9,779 bases of DNA from a virus (lineage: Duplodnaviria > Heunggongvirae > Uroviricota > Caudoviricetes), in the IMG/VR virus record IMGVR_UViG_2740892231_000007; one strand, written 5' to 3'. How positions within the stretch are numbered: the first letter of the stretch is position 1; every line of letters starts with the position of its first letter. The notes under the pieces are model-generated. The model was given only the letters and a program-made list of their open reading frames with translations. It was not told where the DNA came from and did no database searches. Positions 1 through 6,441 of this stretch are shown here, one piece after another. A program made the translations under genes and the position numbers.

Positions 1-1242
1 ATGGCGAGAAAAACACCCCCATTAACCACGGTGCAGATCAAAGCAGCCAGACCAGCGGAAAAGGAATACACCCTACAGGACGGCGGAGGGCTTTTTCTCC
101 TGGTCAAACCGTCCGGATCAAAACTCTGGCGATTTTCCTACTACCGGCCATCGGACAAAAAAAGAATATTGCTGAGTTTTGGATCGCTTGATGATGTTTC
201 CCTGGCTGATGCCAGAAAACGCCGTAGCGAGTACAGAGCGTTAATCAGTGCCGGAACTGACCCGCAGGGCCATGAGAAGAAAAAACGAGAGGCAGAGGCC
301 CGAAGACAAGGGAACACGTTCGAAAATGTGGCGGCGGCATGGTACCAGGTGAAAATCAGCCAGAATCTGGCCCCCAACACGATTAAAGACATCTGGCGAT
401 CGCTGGATAAATATGTATTCCCGTTCATCGGCAACACCCCAATAGACACCCTGACCGCTCGCAGGTTCGTTGAGGTGCTTACCCCCATCAAGGAGCGCGG
501 CAACCTGGAAACACTCAAACGGGTTTTACAGCGCGTTAATGAGGTAATGGATTACGCCGCCAACAGTGGGCTGATTGATGCCAATCCGGCTATGAATGTG
601 CGTAAGGCGTTCCCCTCCCCTGTAAAAAAACATATGCCAACAATCCGCCCCGAACAGTTGCCGGAGCTTATGCAGGCTTTATCAGTATCGGCAACAGAAC
701 GGCAGACCAGATTACTGATTGAATGGCAGTTACTGACCGTAACCCGTCCCGCCGAAGCGTCATCAACGCGGTGGGATGAAATCGACCTGGACGCGCAACG
801 CTGGACGATACCCGCCGGACGCATGAAGATGCGCAGGGATCACGTTATCCCACTTTCCGGTCAGGCTATGGCGGTGCTGGAGGCCATGAAACCAATCAGC
901 CACCACCGCGATTATGTTTTCCCGAGTCTGAAAGACCCACGGCAGCCAATGAACAGCCAGACAGCAAACGCAGCATTACGACGCATGGGGTTCGCTGGCG
1001 TGCTGGTGTCTCATGGATTACGCGCCATATTCAGTACAGCAGCGAACGAGGAAGGATTCGAGCCGGACGTAATCGAGGCCGCACTTGCCCACGTCGACAC
1101 TAACGAAGTGAGACGGGCATACAACCGGAGCAACTACATAGAAAAACGCGTGGTGCTTATGCGCTGGTGGGGCGAATTTGTCGAGGCTGCGGCGACGGGC
1201 GTAACCCTCGCCAGTGGTAAAAGGGGTATCCGAGCCGTTTAG
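1..1242 (+). CDS. int: P4-type tyrosine integrase (site-specific recombinase)
   Basis: 413-aa ORF starting at ATG at position 1. N-terminus (KEYTLQDGGGLFLLVKPSGSKLWRFSYY) matches the N-terminal arm domain of P4-like integrases as recalled. C-terminal half carries tyrosine-recombinase motifs readable in the translation: AGRMKMRRDHVIPLS, HGLRA, and RRAYNRSNY with the candidate nucleophile Tyr. Family assignment is from memory, not a search. Confidence 0.9.
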   Translation: MARKTPPLTTVQIKAARPAEKEYTLQDGGGLFLLVKPSGSKLWRFSYYRPSDKKRILLSFGSLDDVSLADARKRRSEYRALISAGTDPQGHEKKKREAEARRQGNTFENVAAAWYQVKISQNLAPNTIKDIWRSLDKYVFPFIGNTPIDTLTARRFVEVLTPIKERGNLETLKRVLQRVNEVMDYAANSGLIDANPAMNVRKAFPSPVKKHMPTIRPEQLPELMQALSVSATERQTRLLIEWQLLTVTRPAEASSTRWDEIDLDAQRWTIPAGRMKMRRDHVIPLSGQAMAVLEAMKPISHHRDYVFPSLKDPRQPMNSQTANAALRRMGFAGVLVSHGLRAIFSTAANEEGFEPDVIEAALAHVDTNEVRRAYNRSNYIEKRVVLMRWWGEFVEAAATGVTLASGKRGIRAV

Positions 1243-1738: not shown

Positions 1739-1945
1739 ATGGAAGCAATCAAAAAAGTCATCTTTCGCCAGGAAGTAAAAAAACTTATCCACATCAAGGC
1801 AGACAGCACGCTTCAAAGCATGATCAACGCCGGAGAATTTCCGCAGGGTTTTCGCGTTGGTTTACGCCGTCGCGGATGGTATGAGGAAGACGTAATCGCA
1901 TGGATGAAAGAACGTGAGCAGGAAGCACGCGGAACGGCTGCGTAA
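1739..1945 (+). CDS. alpA: AlpA-family (prophage CP4-57-type) transcriptional regulator / excisionase-like HTH protein
   Basis: 68-aa ORF with AAGGT RBS 8 nt upstream of the ATG. The segment KKLIHIKADSTLQSMINAGEFPQGFRVGLRRRGWYEEDVIAWMKE fits the AlpA/Vis-type HTH pattern as recalled. Position immediately downstream of a P4-type int in the same orientation is typical. Confidence 0.8.
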   Translation: MEAIKKVIFRQEVKKLIHIKADSTLQSMINAGEFPQGFRVGLRRRGWYEEDVIAWMKEREQEARGTAA

Positions 1946-2262
1946 TGGTGTGAGGCATAACACGATGAACATAACAAAAAGCGCCCCGTTGCCGGAACGC
2001 CCTTGTGAACAATTAACCTGCTGCGCCTTATGTGTATGTGATCCCAAACATAAGCACGGGAATGATAGCCGCTATCAGGCTGGTGGGCAATGTAATTACC
2101 CTTTGGGTTCTATGCCGCGTTGCTGTAATTCTTTGCGGATTATTCGCTTTATCCAGGCAGCAAGAGAATCATCGCCGTCATGTTGTTGTGCCTTTTCCAT
2201 CTTTTCCCGTAAGTCAGGATCTAAACGGAACTGGAACGGAGGATTACCACGCCTTTCGTTTT

Positions 2263-2316
2263 TGTGTATTGACACGTTAATTACACCTCATGTAATGTAT
2301 TTATGTGTATTGACAC
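2263..2316 (+). promoter_or_regulatory. Two copies of 13-bp direct repeat TGTGTATTGACAC (2263-2275, 2304-2316), 41 bp apart, with embedded TTGACA
   Basis: Exact 13-bp repeat about four helical turns apart. The first copy contains TTGACA (2269-2274) followed after 16 nt by TGTAAT (2291-2296), a plausible rightward sigma70 promoter. Each copy is followed by a TTACAC motif. Confidence 0.35.
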
Positions 2317-2494
2317 ATTACACACAATCAACACAAAAAGCAAAGCCCGCTGGCGCTATGAACACCAACGGGCTTCTAACCAAACCATTAATTGAGGTAA
2401 CGATTATGGCTATAAAAGAGCATAGCTTACTCTTTATACACACACAAACGCCCCGGAAACAGAATAATCCGTTTCATAGTTCGGTTTTGTGCAC

Positions 2495-2722
2495 TCATCC
2501 TGGCGGTCGGTTTTTGCCGGATTTAAGCCGCCGTGGGTATTTATCGACAAAATCTTCAAGGGCAAATTTTTCTGGTGGCACTAAGCGCGGCGCTGGTGGT
2601 GGTATTTTTGTTCTGGTTAGTTCTTCCTCAAGTCTGGCGCAGGCTTCTGACTGCCTTTGCCGGATGATTTCATCATCTTGCGTTTGCGTGTCTTGTATTG
2701 GTGATAGTGTGTTGTTGGTCAT
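2495..2722 (-). CDS. Hypothetical protein (75 aa), second gene of the leftward unit
   Basis: Minus-strand ORF 57 nt downstream of the RHH gene, with an AGGG RBS-like motif about 7 nt before the ATG. Translation is charged and Pro-rich (MTNNTLSPIQDTQTQDDEIIRQRQSEACARLEEELTRTKIPPPAP...), protein-like, whereas the overlapping plus-strand frame is Cys/Ser-rich. No family recognised. Confidence 0.45.
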   Translation of the reverse strand: MTNNTLSPIQDTQTQDDEIIRQRQSEACARLEEELTRTKIPPPAPRLVPPEKFALEDFVDKYPRRLKSGKNRPPG

Positions 2723-2779
2723 GATACTGCCCTGTAAAGCAATGCGCCGTAGTACCTCACACCACGGCGCTGATAGTGA

Positions 2780-2959
2780 TTATTCTGATTCTTTGGCCTT
2801 GCGGCGCTGGCGGCGTTTGATCTCGCCTCGCATGGCTGTAACGATAAATTGCGCAGTGCTCTCGCCTGTTTCTTTTACTTGCTCCATAGCCTCAACAACT
2901 TCATGCGGGGCGCGAGCCTGTAATTTCTGTGATTTGTTATTGATATGGTCTCTTTCCAT
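2780..2959 (-). CDS. Ribbon-helix-helix (Arc/CopG-like) DNA-binding protein, candidate repressor (59 aa)
   Basis: Not on the ORF track because it is short; found by reverse-complementing 2780-2959. ATG at 2959 with AGGGAAG RBS 5 nt upstream, TAA stop at 2780-2782. Translation: MERDHINNKSQKLQARAPHEVVEAMEQVKETGESTAQFIVTAMRGEIKRRQRRKAKESE. Pattern of short beta-strand (KLQARAP), helix (HEVVEAMEQVKE), G-x-S/T turn (TGES) and second helix (TAQFIVTAMRGEIKRR) fits the RHH fold. Its promoter overlaps palindrome P1. Confidence 0.55.
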   Translation of the reverse strand: MERDHINNKSQKLQARAPHEVVEAMEQVKETGESTAQFIVTAMRGEIKRRQRRKAKESE

Positions 2960-2979
2960 TTCTGCTTCCCTTTGTGATT

Positions 2980-3078
2980 ACTGGAATCCAGTATACACGA
3001 AAAAGACCAAAACAAAACGCTTGAAGTGGATTCCACTTAGTGATTATACTGGAATCCAGTTGAGTGTTTATCACTCAA
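2980..3078. promoter_or_regulatory. Divergent control region: three related perfect palindromes overlapping back-to-back promoters, plus a leader inverted repeat
   Basis: P1 ACTGGA-A-TCCAGT at 2980-2992; P2 AAGTGGA-T-TCCACTT at 3024-3038; P3 ACTGGA-A-TCCAGT at 3048-3060. Half-sites ACTGGA and AGTGGA differ at one base. Centre spacing is 45 and 23 bp. A TATACT -10-like hexamer overlaps P3 on the plus strand (3045-3050, with TTGAAG -35-like at 3021-3026, 18-bp spacer) and overlaps P1 on the minus strand (2990-2995). A further inverted repeat TTGAGTG-TTTAT-CACTCAA (3060-3078) lies in the rightward leader. Confidence 0.55.
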
Positions 3079-3155
3079 TGCAAACGAGGCAGAAAAGGAT
3101 TGCCGTCCTTTCGCAGCCTCTGACCACCAACGATAGCAACAGTATCGAGGTAGCT

Positions 3156-3356
3156 ATGAGAAATCATATCACACACCCGCAAGGGCGGGACCCGCACAAC
3201 CTGAATAAATACATCTGGCGTTTTATCGCCCTGAGCACGGCTAAGCCGCGCGTAATCCACATCGTGGCCACCAGCGAACAGGAAGCCCGTCGGCAATCAC
3301 CGGCTGGCTGCGTGATGGTATTCACTGCCCGTATTCGTCAGGGGGTGGACTTATGA
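3156..3356 (+). CDS. Small protein (66 aa), possibly Icd-like (host cell division inhibitor family); first gene of rightward operon
   Basis: ATG at 3156 preceded by GAGGT RBS; in frame with the C-terminal end of the long 1914-3356 frame but only this terminal part looks protein-like (MRNHITHPQGRDPHNLNKYIWRFIALSTAKPRVIHIVATSEQEARRQSPAGCVMVFTARIRQGVDL). The W.F.A ... hhhhA.SE.EARR ... F.ARI pattern resembles Icd-like proteins of P4-like prophages as recalled; low-certainty recall. Stop overlaps the next start (ATGA). Confidence 0.5.
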   Translation: MRNHITHPQGRDPHNLNKYIWRFIALSTAKPRVIHIVATSEQEARRQSPAGCVMVFTARIRQGVDL

Positions 3357-3586
3357 GCCAGGAAATCACACTACAACAGGCAGCAGAACGCGCCCACCAA
3401 ATCGAAGTTATTTGCGCACTGGCAGAGGATTACCCTGGCATGATGACCGACAGCGAATCAGGGGCAATCATCGGCTTACTTAAACGCCTTAGCGGTGAGG
3501 TCTGCGTATTCCTGAGCGATGAGCAGGAAAGAAGAACGCTTATTTCTAACGAAAAAAAATGCGGAGGGGTACACCATGTGCAATAA
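3353..3586 (+). CDS. Hypothetical small protein (77 aa)
   Basis: ATG overlaps the upstream stop (ATGA at 3353-3356), GGGGTGG RBS-like upstream. Acidic, helical-looking translation. No family recognised. Confidence 0.5.
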   Translation: MSQEITLQQAAERAHQIEVICALAEDYPGMMTDSESGAIIGLLKRLSGEVCVFLSDEQERRTLISNEKKCGGVHHVQ

Positions 3587-4043
3587 CATCCGTCCGGACG
3601 CAACCGCCGCCGCGCTCACTACGCTGATGCTCGCGCTTATTGATATTTCTGTTATTGCTGACAGGGCGCATAAGCACGCCACCAGTGAAACAGAATATGC
3701 AGGGGCTTTCGTTCCTCATTCGCTGGCGGTTATGCAACTTAGTGCTGATATGGCGCTGAATGAGGCCAAAGCCATCCTGATTGCTGATTGTGAAAATGGG
3801 GGGGGGGTTATGCGTGATGATCGTTTTAATTCCCTGAAACAGGAATTTTCCGGCGTTCCTGATGATGCGGCTGATGCGCTTTCGTCAATGCCAGAACTTA
3901 TTAGAGCGGCTTTTTTCTTACTTTCCACGAGAGAATATAAATCAACGGGGCTTGATGTACTGAATATCGCCGCCGATTATGCGGAATATGTGGCAGAGGC
4001 GCGTTACAGAAGAAAATTTCCTGAGGATGTAAGCCATGCGTGA
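3576..4043 (+). CDS. Hypothetical protein (155 aa) containing an in-frame G10 homopolymer
   Basis: Start chosen at ATG 3576 (GGAGGGG RBS 6 nt upstream) rather than the track's 3519; overlaps the upstream gene by 11 nt. A G10 run at 3798-3807 encodes Gly-Gly-Gly and is followed by an in-frame ATG at 3810. No family recognised. Confidence 0.5.
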   Translation: MCNNIRPDATAAALTTLMLALIDISVIADRAHKHATSETEYAGAFVPHSLAVMQLSADMALNEAKAILIADCENGGGVMRDDRFNSLKQEFSGVPDDAADALSSMPELIRAAFFLLSTREYKSTGLDVLNIAADYAEYVAEARYRRKFPEDVSHA

Positions 4044-4269
4044 TATTTACCACGAAACAACAGATCGCGTATTTCTTGCACTTTCTCACAGTGAAAATAT
4101 GATGGAAATATTGCGCATATGGCTTGAAACACTTGGCGACAATGAACGCGACAAACAAAAATCAAGAATTGCCACGGCATTAATAACGCTTCTTGAGCCT
4201 GTAATAAATGAGTTGCAGGAAATAGAGACATTGCACGACAGATATAACGAACAGCACACCGGAGAATAA
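4036..4269 (+). CDS. Hypothetical small protein (77 aa)
   Basis: ATG at 4036 overlaps the upstream stop by 8 nt, AGGATG RBS-like upstream. AT-rich codon usage compared with neighbours. No family recognised. Confidence 0.5.
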   Translation: MRDIYHETTDRVFLALSHSENMMEILRIWLETLGDNERDKQKSRIATALITLLEPVINELQEIETLHDRYNEQHTGE

Positions 4270-4274
4270 AAATA

Positions 4275-4574
4275 ATGAAACTTAAATATTCTGGCTTAAC
4301 TGCCAGTGGCAACACTCACCCTAAATTTACGCGCGGTGATATTTACCGCGACCAGTACGGCGGTACGGTAATGATTAAGGGCGTGGCGGGACGGTGCGTA
4401 ACTTACCGCCGTGAAGGTTACGAATATGATTGCGTGATGCCTGTTTATCAGTTCCGGCGTGATTTTTCTCTGGTACAGACCGCGCCGCATAACGTGCCCA
4501 CCAGCAACGCCAGGGCACGGGCAAACATCCAGAAGCTGAAAACAATGATTAACGGATTCAGGGGTAAAAAATGA
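4275..4574 (+). CDS. Hypothetical protein (99 aa), translationally coupled to rep
   Basis: GGAGAA RBS 8 nt upstream of ATG 4275; stop overlaps the rep start (ATGA at 4571-4574). No family recognised. Confidence 0.55.
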   Translation: MKLKYSGLTASGNTHPKFTRGDIYRDQYGGTVMIKGVAGRCVTYRREGYEYDCVMPVYQFRRDFSLVQTAPHNVPTSNARARANIQKLKTMINGFRGKK

Positions 4575-5980
4575 AACTGGCACCGAACGTAAAACGATTA
4601 CCGAAAGATAAATACACCGATGCGATTATTTTTGCGGGTATTGATGCTCATTCATTCGCAGAGCATTACATCATTGCACAGGCCAAAAAAGCAGGCGATC
4701 CAGTCCCTCCCGTTTATCTGGGGCGTTATCAGTTAAGCGAACTGGATAACCTCCAGATTGTTGATGATGGGCGATACAGGGCGACGGTGATACGCGCCGG
4801 AAATATTGAAGAGCCGCAGCTGTTAACCATCGCCACGAAACTGGCGAGCGCCGGAGTCCAGGAGGCGCGGCTACTTTCTGAAAATTTCGAATTGCTGGAG
4901 GAATGGAGCGACCAGCTTCCACGGCTTAGGGAGGCATGGGAACGCGGGGAAAGCCTGGTCATGAAAAAAATCCCCCAGCGAAAAACCAAGCTACCAATGA
5001 GCGTTGGATCTACCGGATACGACACACAGCTTGATTACGTGGTAAAGGGGATTATTCCGGCATCGTCGCTTTGCAGCATATACGGGGCGAGCGGTTCCTA
5101 TAAATCATTCCTTGCCGGATCGTGGGCGTGTCACGTTTCCACGGGCCGCCAGTGGGGAGGCCGCAGGGTGGCGCATGGCGCTGTTCTCTATGTGGTTGGT
5201 GAAGGCGGTATAGGCGTTCCGCGTCGTGTAAAAGCCTGGGAGGTTGTGCACGATGAGCAGGTGAAAAATCTGTATCTGGTAAACCGTCCCATCTTTCCGG
5301 CTGCCCCGCTTGATATTGATGAAATGGTTATCGCTGCCAGCCAGGTGGAGCGGGAAACGGGTAAACCTGTTCGCATGATTATTCTGGACACGCTGGCGCG
5401 TTGCTTTGGCGGCAATGATGAAAATGACTCCCGCGACATGGGGGGATTTATCCGTGGTTGTGACGAGCTTAAACGGCGCACAGGGGCTACGGTGCTGGTG
5501 GTTCACCATTCCGGCAAGGATGAAACAAAGGGGGCGCGTGGTTCCAGTGCATTTCGTGCATCACTGGACGCTGAATACCGGATACGCAGGGAGGACGCAG
5601 GAAGCGAAGCGCTGGTTATCTCATGCACCAAAATGAAGGACGCGGAGGAACTCAAAGAGGCTGCCTATGATTTGCGGGTGGTGGAGCTTTTTACCGACGC
5701 TGACGGGGAGTTAATCACGTCGCTGGTGGTGGTGGATAAGCCGCGTCCTCCCGTTGAACTGGAGCGCATCGAAGAGGCTGGCAACAAGACGGAGAATCAT
5801 GCTGCGCTATGGGGATGTATCCGGTCACGCACACAGCACGGCGACAAGTGCACGATCCCGCTGTTACGTGACGATATGAAAAAGCTGGGGTACGAAATGA
5901 AAAACTTCAGCCGCTGGCTACGCAAGCTGGAAAAAGACGGGGTTATTTATATCGACGGTGATGATGTAGGCCCTCTGTAA
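4571..5980 (+). CDS. rep: Replication initiator / helicase-like protein with RecA-like (AAA_25-type) ATPase core and C-terminal DNA-binding-like tail
   Basis: 469-aa ORF. P-loop-like GASGSYKS, Walker-B-like hydrophobic run ending in Asp (RMIILDTLA), and VLVVHHSGKD motif typical of RepA/DnaB-like RecA-fold replication ATPases as recalled. Basic C-terminal segment (MKKLGYEMKNFSRWLRKLEKDGVIYI) is a plausible winged-helix iteron binder. Iteron array begins 1 nt after the stop. Confidence 0.85.
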   Translation: MKLAPNVKRLPKDKYTDAIIFAGIDAHSFAEHYIIAQAKKAGDPVPPVYLGRYQLSELDNLQIVDDGRYRATVIRAGNIEEPQLLTIATKLASAGVQEARLLSENFELLEEWSDQLPRLREAWERGESLVMKKIPQRKTKLPMSVGSTGYDTQLDYVVKGIIPASSLCSIYGASGSYKSFLAGSWACHVSTGRQWGGRRVAHGAVLYVVGEGGIGVPRRVKAWEVVHDEQVKNLYLVNRPIFPAAPLDIDEMVIAASQVERETGKPVRMIILDTLARCFGGNDENDSRDMGGFIRGCDELKRRTGATVLVVHHSGKDETKGARGSSAFRASLDAEYRIRREDAGSEALVISCTKMKDAEELKEAAYDLRVVELFTDADGELITSLVVVDKPRPPVELERIEEAGNKTENHAALWGCIRSRTQHGDKCTIPLLRDDMKKLGYEMKNFSRWLRKLEKDGVIYIDGDDVGPL

Positions 5981-6185
5981 AAAGTGAGGCGCAAAAGTGA
6001 GGACAATGAGGAATTGCACGAAAAACCCCCTGAACTCCTCACTTTTCAACGTATATATACCCCAAAAAGTGAGGAGCAAAAAAAATCCTTATGGAACATG
6101 CACATACAAAACACAAAAATCTCAAGTGAGACGAAGCGAGACGCTTTAAAAAGTGAGGCGTAAAAGTGAGCATGAGTGAGGAGAT
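5981..6185. repeat. Iteron-type origin of replication: multiple copies of AAAGTGAGG with AT-rich spacer
   Basis: AAAGTGAGG at 5981-5989, 5994-6002, 6066-6074, 6150-6158; 8/9 copy at 6163-6170; degenerate copies near 6004-6012, 6123-6131, 6175-6181; inverted copy CCTCACTTT at 6037-6045. Pairs are spaced 13 bp. AT-rich tracts GTATATATAC (6051-6060) and A8 (6078-6085). Sits directly downstream of rep. Confidence 0.65.
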
Positions 6186-6192
6186 AACCAAA

Positions 6193-6441
6193 ATGCGCAG
6201 AGACAGAACAGAGCCGAAATATAAAGCGTTAGACATGACAGAGCACGCCTTAAAGGTGGCAATCAGGGTAATAGACCGCCACGCGGGGGAAGGATACGCG
6301 AAGGAACATCCCGACCTGATAAGCGCATTCATGACCACGGCGGCGGCAAACTTTGCCACGCTGACAGAACGGGAGATTGCCGAAGCGGAACAGGTAACAA
6401 CCATCAACGTAAAAACCGGAGAGTCAGGCGATGATACATGA
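6193..6441 (+). CDS. Hypothetical small protein (about 82 aa; start uncertain among GTG 6166, ATG 6172, ATG 6193)
   Basis: ORF overlapping the last iterons at its 5' end. ATG 6193 has a GAGGAG motif 11 nt upstream. Stop overlaps the next gene by 11 nt. No family recognised. Confidence 0.45.
   Translation: MRRDRTEPKYKALDMTEHALKVAIRVIDRHAGEGYAKEHPDLISAFMTTAAANFATLTEREIAEAEQVTTINVKTGESGDDT

Follow-up and report, generated by a model that had tools for sequence, protein, structure and literature searches.

The stretch of DNA analysed here (9,779 nucleotides (nt); IMG/VR record IMGVR_UViG_2740892231_000007), which we call the window, is an integrative element of Escherichia coli, by its gene content a phage satellite of about 10 kb of the phage-inducible chromosomal island (PICI) type. 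Our subject is the segment between positions 3156 and 4574, immediately ahead of the replication gene rep, where a preliminary description had placed five small genes for proteins of 66, 77, 155, 77 and 99 residues. All five open reading frames (ORFs) were recovered with those lengths and coordinates (Table 1). The preliminary description also had the ORFs overlapping at their stops and starts, which is true of four junctions when the one with rep is counted: ORF1 and ORF2 share an ATGA (4-nt overlap), ORF2 and ORF3 overlap by 11 nt, ORF3 and ORF4 by 8 nt (ATGCGTGA), and ORF5 and rep again meet in an ATGA, whereas ORF4 and ORF5 are separated by a 5-nt gap. A purine-rich motif resembling a Shine-Dalgarno (SD) sequence lies 5-9 nt 5′ of each start codon, and neither promoter-like nor terminator-like sites were found on the + strand inside 3156-4574.

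Table 1. Features of the window; the genes of the segment and its leader are listed first
Feature	Position	Strand	Details
Switch region	2979-3060		a 25-nt operator-like repeat that occurs twice, 66-68 bp apart
Leader of rightward operon	3057-3155	+	about 100 nt
ORF1	3156-3356	+	Icd family, 66 aa
ORF2	3353-3586	+	77 aa
ORF3	3576-4043	+	155 aa; modules 3a (~3576-3797) and 3b (3810-4043)
G10 homopolymer	3798-3807	+	just 5′ of the internal ATG of module 3b (3810)
ORF4	4036-4269	+	77 aa
ORF5	4275-4574	+	RgdR orthologue, 99 aa
rep	4571-5980	+	RepA-type AAA_25 helicase, 469 aa; PF13481, 144.8 bits
Candidate replication origin	5975-6170		three iterons (AAAAAGTGAGGCGYAAAAGTGAG) about 85 nt apart and a 21-nt inverted repeat
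Integrase	1-1242		
AlpA-type regulator	1739-1945		
Three small ribbon-helix-helix-like genes	2096-2275, 2495-2722, 2780-2959	leftward	between alpA and the rightward operon
PerC-family gene	6431-6703		97% identity with PchE from O157:H7 Sakai
ClpP-like prohead protease/major capsid protein fusion	7321-9240		

We compared junctions and alleles across 86 related loci and counted gene content in 76 modules. The distance from the icd-like gene to ORF2 is −4 in 21 of 22 loci and that from ORF2 to 3a is −11 in 20 of 22; the +5 spacing between ORF4 and rgdR (the ORF5 gene) recurs in 66 of 67, and the stop codon of rgdR overlaps the start of the downstream replicase gene as ATGA in every one of the 86. 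With its junctions conserved to this degree, the idea that the genes are tightly coupled as a single unit and run on into rep held up; their co-expression on induction, as the preliminary description has it, is plausible. The pooled ratio of nonsynonymous to synonymous substitution rates (dN/dS) against the related-locus alleles was 0.30 for ORF1, 0.21 for ORF2, 0.29 for 3a, 0.15 for 3b, 0.42 for ORF4 and 0.22 for ORF5. Because of these low ratios, and because all five proteins fall in PHROG families, the five ORFs are real genes under purifying selection.

Apart from a possible Icd-like first gene, the preliminary description had recognised none of the five. The suspicion about ORF1 proved right. 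ORF1 scores 69 bits on the NCBIfam model NF033153 (cutoff 25), on which P1 Icd itself reaches 52.6 bits, and it aligns with P1 Icd at 39% identity over 49 residues (E = 3e-8), the two proteins having the motifs IWRF and ATxExEARxQxPxG...FTAR in common. Judged by these similarities, ORF1, which belongs to phrog_6196, is a genuine member of the Icd family and a homologue of the P1 cell-division inhibitor. Like P1 icd, which is followed by ant1, it is the first cistron and is coupled through ATGA to the gene behind it. A controlling antisense RNA of the C4/CI type upstream of the gene was absent from the window: Rfam searches of the whole window and of 2900-3400 returned no C4, isrK, c4-a1b1 or other credible RNA, even at E <= 10.

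ORF5 can also be recognised, contrary to the preliminary description. Its residues 16-68 score 82.1 bits on DUF4222 (PF13973; cutoff 27), and over its entire length (99/99 residues, ungapped) it is 78% identical to ECs1581, the RgdR protein of E. coli O157:H7 Sakai; the 22 substitutions lie mostly in the N- and C-terminal parts. RgdR orthologues have been defined by a length of 99 residues, more than 77% similarity and an RGD motif at residues 20-22 (PMC3378721), and ORF5 has all three features, retaining R20, G21 and D22. It also lies directly 5′ of the replication gene. The RGD motif is present in 85 of the 86 orthologues, and the wider DUF4222 family lacks its arginine, PGD being the commonest form there. 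The predicted structure is a barrel of the SH3/Tudor type with five strands (residues 23-68), after which comes a basic C-terminal helix (79-96). On these grounds we identify ORF5 as an orthologue of RgdR/ECs1581.

RgdR is known as an activator of LEE1 (LEE being the enterocyte-effacement locus) and of type III secretion, and as a repressor of motility (PMC3378721). These activities were demonstrated only for ECs1581 and C1493, and a variant from strain ED1a carrying R20C was inactive (PMC3378721). Non-specific DNA binding has been described for the published orthologue. According to PMC6092414, every E. coli PICI analysed encodes the protein. The island studied here has homologues of both RgdR and PchE, each a published regulator of the LEE. 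We also considered RgdR as a homologue of P4 orf151, since the motifs PGEIYR and RFLREF are common to both; the profile comparison (hhalign) gave a probability of 12.6%, and we regard this as a weak lead. Five weak DUF4222-like stretches were noticed in P0272, a protein of 797 residues with an InlB B-repeat domain (E = 1.8e-5 to ORF5). Their DUF4222 scores are below the Pfam cutoff, and they could represent reuse of the barrel in a surface protein or a chance match. Sequence searches of the PDB with ORF1 and ORF5 returned noise only. Among 50,697 phage records, each of these two proteins matched a single small record, and because of this near absence the genes at the two ends of the segment are, as far as the records reach, satellite-specific.

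The closest described counterpart of the segment is the early region of Sakai Sp7 (OI-51/CP-933C of EDL933; ECs1577-ECs1582), where the order ECs1577 (icd-like), ECs1578, ECs1579, ECs1580, ECs1581 (RgdR) and a primase-type replicase gene matches that of the window. Identities between homologues are 50% for ORF1/ECs1577, 51% for ORF2/ECs1579, 30% for ORF4/ECs1580 and, as given above, 78% for ORF5/ECs1581; the N-terminal domain of the replicase is 46% identical, the downstream PchE is 97% identical, and the ATGA junction between rgdR and the replicase gene is the same. The two elements differ in several respects. The Sp7 replicase is of the DUF927 primase type whereas that of the window is a RepA/AAA_25 helicase; ORF3a/3b is found in the window and not in Sp7, whereas ECs1578 is found in Sp7 and not in the window; the window, with its three leftward genes of the ribbon-helix-helix type, occupies a different attachment site; and in its approximately 10 kb it carries the single ClpP-protease/capsid fusion in place of the full head module of Sp7. 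Another early operon of this kind is found in EcCICFT073, an E. coli PICI/cfPICI in which c1493 encodes RgdR. The segment is thus the standard, already catalogued early operon of E. coli PICI-type satellites, from whose annotated islands the window does not depart.

What varies within this operon is its middle. Across the 76 modules, the constant elements are the icd-like gene and the pair ORF4-rgdR, and between them lies a cassette zone that can hold ORF2, 3a, 3b, ECs1578, a 121-residue family, a 70-residue family, or fusions (3a with 3b, ORF2 with 3a); the alleles of the module are mosaic. ORF2 (phrog_1478, predicted to be helical) is optional; 22 of the 76 modules have this cassette. ORF4 (phrog_2196, also predicted to be helical) is a near-universal core gene, found in 73 of them, and lies 5 nt 5′ of rgdR. 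ORF3 as a whole corresponds to phrog_2512, its N-terminal half to phrog_5146 and its C-terminal half to phrog_24341. Fused ORF3 proteins of 154 or 155 residues and 77-95% identity are common in E. coli, and module 3b alone occurs at 100% identity in many genomes behind other genes. Of 5426 complete E. coli genomes, 1240 (about a fifth), from all pathotypes, have a match to the ORF4-rgdR block.

ORF2, 3a, 3b and ORF4 had no match in Pfam, NCBIfam or PADLOC, and neither the other cassette alleles from related loci nor ECs1578-1580 of Sp7 matched Pfam. The PHROGs families that hold the middle genes are all of unknown function. ORF1 and ORF5 match known proteins and the middle genes, though conserved, do not; the view that this part of the operon is uncharacterised stands for its three or four middle genes. 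By extrapolation from ORF1 and ORF5 these cassettes are apparently satellite-restricted, the middle genes themselves not having been searched in the 50,697-record set. Several ideas about their origin were dropped. The four units have a length of 234 nt in common, and paralogy among them was not supported by any pairwise or profile-profile signal. A homology of ORF3a with P4 epsilon (PF25738) was not supported by Pfam; BLASTP aligned only residues 22-66 (E = 0.002 in a six-protein database), and hhalign of the ORF3a family against a 64-sequence epsilon alignment gave a probability of 2.1%. The AlphaFold 2 model of ORF3 consists of two helical hairpins, one per module, and a disordered linker between them that is encoded around the G run; it has a mean predicted local distance difference test (pLDDT) value of 58.9, with values below 50 in the linker (residues 75-102), and was judged too low in confidence for a fold search.

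The preliminary description was correct in that the 4036-4300 stretch is AT-rich, the GC content being 0.397 in ORF4 and 0.453 in the 3b half of ORF3 as compared with 0.496 in the whole window. Its suggestion that this hints at separate acquisition fails. All 75 alleles of the ORF4 family, which range from 30% to 99% identity and include ECs1580, have a GC content of 0.385-0.424. Because every allele is AT-rich and the family is found in nearly all modules, the low GC content is, on this comparison, an old family-wide property and not evidence of recent acquisition.

The number of genes in the operon is set by the length of the G run inside ORF3. With G10, as in the window, or with G7, 3a and 3b are in frame and form one protein of 155 or 154 residues; with G8, G9 or G11 they are separate genes. 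In the G8 state the stop codon of 3a is the TGA in ATGCGTGA, which overlaps the 3b ATG, and in the G9 state its stop lies 28 nt further on. In the 80 IMG/VR loci plus references, G7 was found 16 times, G8 21 times, G9 12 times, G10 three times and G11 once, and the length of the run differs even among loci with identical 40-nt flanks on both sides. Locus L009, which is 99.96% identical to the window over 9571 nt, has G8 and hence two genes, 3a and 3b, where the window has one. The count of five genes is thus correct for the window, where ORF3 is single only through G10, and becomes six in L009. A like range of lengths is seen in complete E. coli genomes (match lengths of 465-468 nt); the O157, O26 and O145 lineages are uniformly G7, and two independent assemblies of NCTC86 concur at 466 nt and G8. 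Both halves of ORF3 are intact in every frame state. Read as a consequence of the sequence, the G7-G11 run toggles the modules between a single fusion and a coupled pair of proteins.

Upstream of ORF1, each copy of the operator-like repeat in the switch region consists of CTTWGTGATTA and TACTGGAATCCAGT and contains the palindrome ACTGGAATCCAGT. The repeats overlap two divergent promoter-like sites, TTGAAG-18-TATACT on the + strand at 3021-3050 and TAAACA-16-TATAAT on the − strand at 3070-3043. Folding of the leader (3057-3170) gave a minimum free energy of −32.2 kcal/mol (z = −3.3 relative to shuffled controls), and the predicted hairpins pair both the ORF1 SD sequence (GAGGU, 3146-3150) and the AUG (3156-3158), so that they may limit the start of translation at ORF1. 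A 480-codon open frame on the + strand (1914-3356) was also noticed, running antisense across the three leftward genes into ORF1; it is a chance ORF of which only the last 66 codons, ORF1 itself, are a gene.

At the other end of the operon, the replicases encoded downstream of rgdR belong to three otherwise unrelated helicase types (AAA_25; D5_N/DUF5906/Pox_D5; DUF927), and an N-terminal domain of about 120-150 residues is common to all three at 41-46% identity. This domain, which has no Pfam match, is encoded at 4571-4990 of the window (Rep residues 1-140), at 5601-6020 of L003 and at 5297-5720 of L004, and shows the pattern MKLAPNVK...IIFAG.DA...PPV.LG..QLSELD. The iteron-bearing region lies directly 3′ of rep, with the 21-nt inverted repeat at 6035-6076. 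PICI origins sit 3′ of the initiator gene (PMC6092414), and the region is probably the replication origin.

We favour, with a probability of roughly 0.65, the interpretation that 3156-4574 forms the section nearest the promoter in the early (replication) operon of a PICI-type satellite, laid out on the plan of P1 immI and the P4 left operon, with the Icd-like gene as its gate and RgdR as a component of the satellite's programme. Transcription would start at the operator-covered promoter near 3021-3050. Ribosomes would load on the Icd-like first cistron, and the overlapping or nearly abutting junctions would pass them on as far as rep. A gate at ORF1 is suggested because of this junction geometry and because P1 icd is needed for the expression of ant (the P1 record annotates icd as "apparently required for expression of ant"); if translation is passed on from ORF1 in this way, then whatever controls ORF1 would control all genes through rep. 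The gate would presumably be governed by protein repressors and/or AlpA in the window and by C4 RNA in some relatives. Once the operon is on, ORF1 would probably arrest host cell division. The cassettes occupy the operon slot of P1 Ant and P4 epsilon, and because of this shared position we infer that they are most likely effectors directed at the helper or the host. RgdR probably serves first of all in satellite replication or the early programme and regulates the LEE only as a side effect, because in all 86 loci rgdR is coupled to the replicase gene, be it of one helicase type or another of the three, and adjoins the N-terminal domain that these share.

The likeness to P1/P7 immI (c4, icd, ant1/ant2) consists in an Icd homologue that comes first and is ATGA-coupled to the next gene. 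The window differs in having neither C4 RNA nor its a/b target sites; its downstream genes are not Ant homologues, and its operon ends in a replication initiator instead of an antirepressor. In the P4 left operon an Icd-like ORF likewise leads, followed by small ORFs, some with 8-nt overlaps, and by a primase/helicase gene as the last. The old "cI ORF" of P4 (137 residues, L088:8168-8584) scores 73.9 bits on the Icd model with its C terminus, its N-terminal part belonging to Pfam Phage_ASH, and it is succeeded by epsilon (PF25738), orf151, orf106 and alpha. The window lacks the CI RNA of P4 and its replicase is of a different type. Some relatives of the window come closer to these phages. The Hfq-binding RNA isrK (RF01394) and then the C4 antisense RNA (RF01695) lie directly 5′ of the icd-like gene in eight loci, about 45 nt from it (for example L031:3888-4073, L005:4353-4541, L077:2808-2993, L049:3235-3420 and 3810-3898), and C4 alone lies beside icd copies in seven more (15/86 in all). 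This is an RNA immunity cassette of the P1/P4 type inside PICI-type islands, one that the window does not have.

Several points weigh against the early-operon interpretation. With no C4/isrK gate in the window, P1 and P4 are analogous to it in architecture only, and in the middle cassettes no homology to Ant, epsilon, orf151 or orf106 could be detected. Expression, coupling and the gate role are predicted for this element. ORF5 has an SD sequence of its own and is 5 nt away from ORF4, so that its translation could be initiated independently. Homopolymer sequencing error could account for some of the G-run counts. Finally, the phenotypes of RgdR were obtained without induction (PMC3378721); that deletion of rgdR has effects in cultures that were not induced implies expression at a basal level at least, and part of the operon may therefore serve the host in the integrated state.

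One could carry this last point further and envision that the integrated island expresses the small genes mainly for host conversion (as "morons"), with RgdR and the PchE-like PerC protein acting on the LEE and the others on further host targets; they would then not be early functions of the satellite that are specific to induction. In uninduced cultures, LEE1 expression and type III secretion fall and motility changes when rgdR or the whole of OI-51 is deleted (PMC3378721), the island carries a close PchE homologue at 6431-6703, and RgdR and PerC are both listed among the accessory virulence regulators of PICIs (PMC6092414). We nevertheless consider this hypothesis rather unlikely. No promoter-like site is present inside 3156-4574; the invariant ATGA between rgdR and the replicase gene extends to strains and species without a LEE; the module is spread over E. 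coli of all pathotypes; and the RGD arginine is not a feature of the wider DUF4222 family.

Another possibility is that the module is a device for abortive infection or superinfection exclusion, in which the Icd-like protein, along with the linked genes and the replicase, would be set off by a protein of an incoming phage, and cell growth would stop. A prophage-like locus of ECOR61, in whose description six linked genes and a DNA primase accompany an Icd-like protein, causes growth arrest when the phage accessory gene orf24 is expressed, and the effect is abolished by removal of the Icd-like gene (bioRxiv 10.1101/2023.04.06.535777); in addition, EcCIMP1 contributes to superinfection immunity (PMC11773190). 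We think it unlikely that this describes the window. The ECOR61 locus is likened to the module by the shared Icd-like/primase description alone, no PADLOC component hidden Markov model matched the five proteins or their neighbours, and the ECOR61 Icd-like protein has a long N-terminal extension, whereas the window has neither this extension nor isrK/C4. The N-extended icd-like ORFs that we found (about 190-205 codons; L031, L049 and L077) read through the isrK and C4 RNA genes, and such long Icd-like annotations may mix up RNA genes with protein, the ECOR61 effector of Silas et al. being possibly a case in point. Neither the host-conversion nor the abortive-infection hypothesis excludes the early-operon interpretation, with which both are compatible.

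A sharper form of the early-operon interpretation combines three proposals, namely that the cassettes are helper-specific effectors such as antirepressors, that the G run is a contingency switch between one tethered and two free proteins, and that RgdR is the obligatory partner of the N-terminal domain of the replicase, its effect on the LEE being a by-product; that all three hold together seems to us quite improbable. The view that the ORFs are chance frames or decaying pseudogenes of a degraded prophage, which could appeal to the first description of OI-51/Sp7 as a highly degraded cryptic prophage (PMC3378721), to the splitting of ORF3 by frameshift in many genomes and to the 480-codon frame as proof that long chance frames occur here, is effectively refuted by dN/dS values of 0.15-0.42 in all six coding units, by the conserved SD motifs and junction geometry, by the PHROG membership of all five proteins, and by the intactness of both ORF3 halves in every frame state together with the persistence of full-length fusions.

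The rest of the window is consistent with its assignment to the PICI type. Near-identical copies in complete genomes adjoin tRNA-Pro between yejM and yejO. An integrase, AlpA, a replication initiator followed on its 3′ side by iterons, a size in the range of about 10-15 kb and a specific attachment site are all present, and the gene set matches the make-up of Gram-negative PICIs (PMC6092414). The unidirectional rightward transcription of PICIs (PMC6092414) is not seen, as the three leftward genes, of which that at 2780-2959 belongs to the YlcI/YnfO family, intervene between alpA and the operon. The AlpA protein of the window resembles ORF88 of P4 (E = 1.5e-7). The ClpP-like protease/capsid fusion is the sole recognisable morphogenesis gene; no portal, terminase or head-completion gene could be recognised in the window, as compared with the full head module of Sakai Sp7, and for a capsid-bearing satellite the island is unusually minimal. 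A 115-nt direct repeat (70% identity; 6721-6835 and 9258-9372) flanks the protease/capsid gene region.

The constant attachment of rgdR to the gene for a satellite replicase recasts a "virulence regulator" as a probable protein of the satellite life cycle. This bears on pathogenesis as well, in that RgdR influences the virulence of enterohaemorrhagic E. coli and the module is common in the species. The P1 immI/P4 plan, together with the isrK/C4 gate of some relatives, provides a concrete model of regulation through ORF1, and the three or four unexplained cassettes make up a compact, well-defined group of genes to screen for interference with a helper or its derepression. The points of most experimental worth are the fusion/fission switch at the G run and the linkage of rgdR to the replicase gene.

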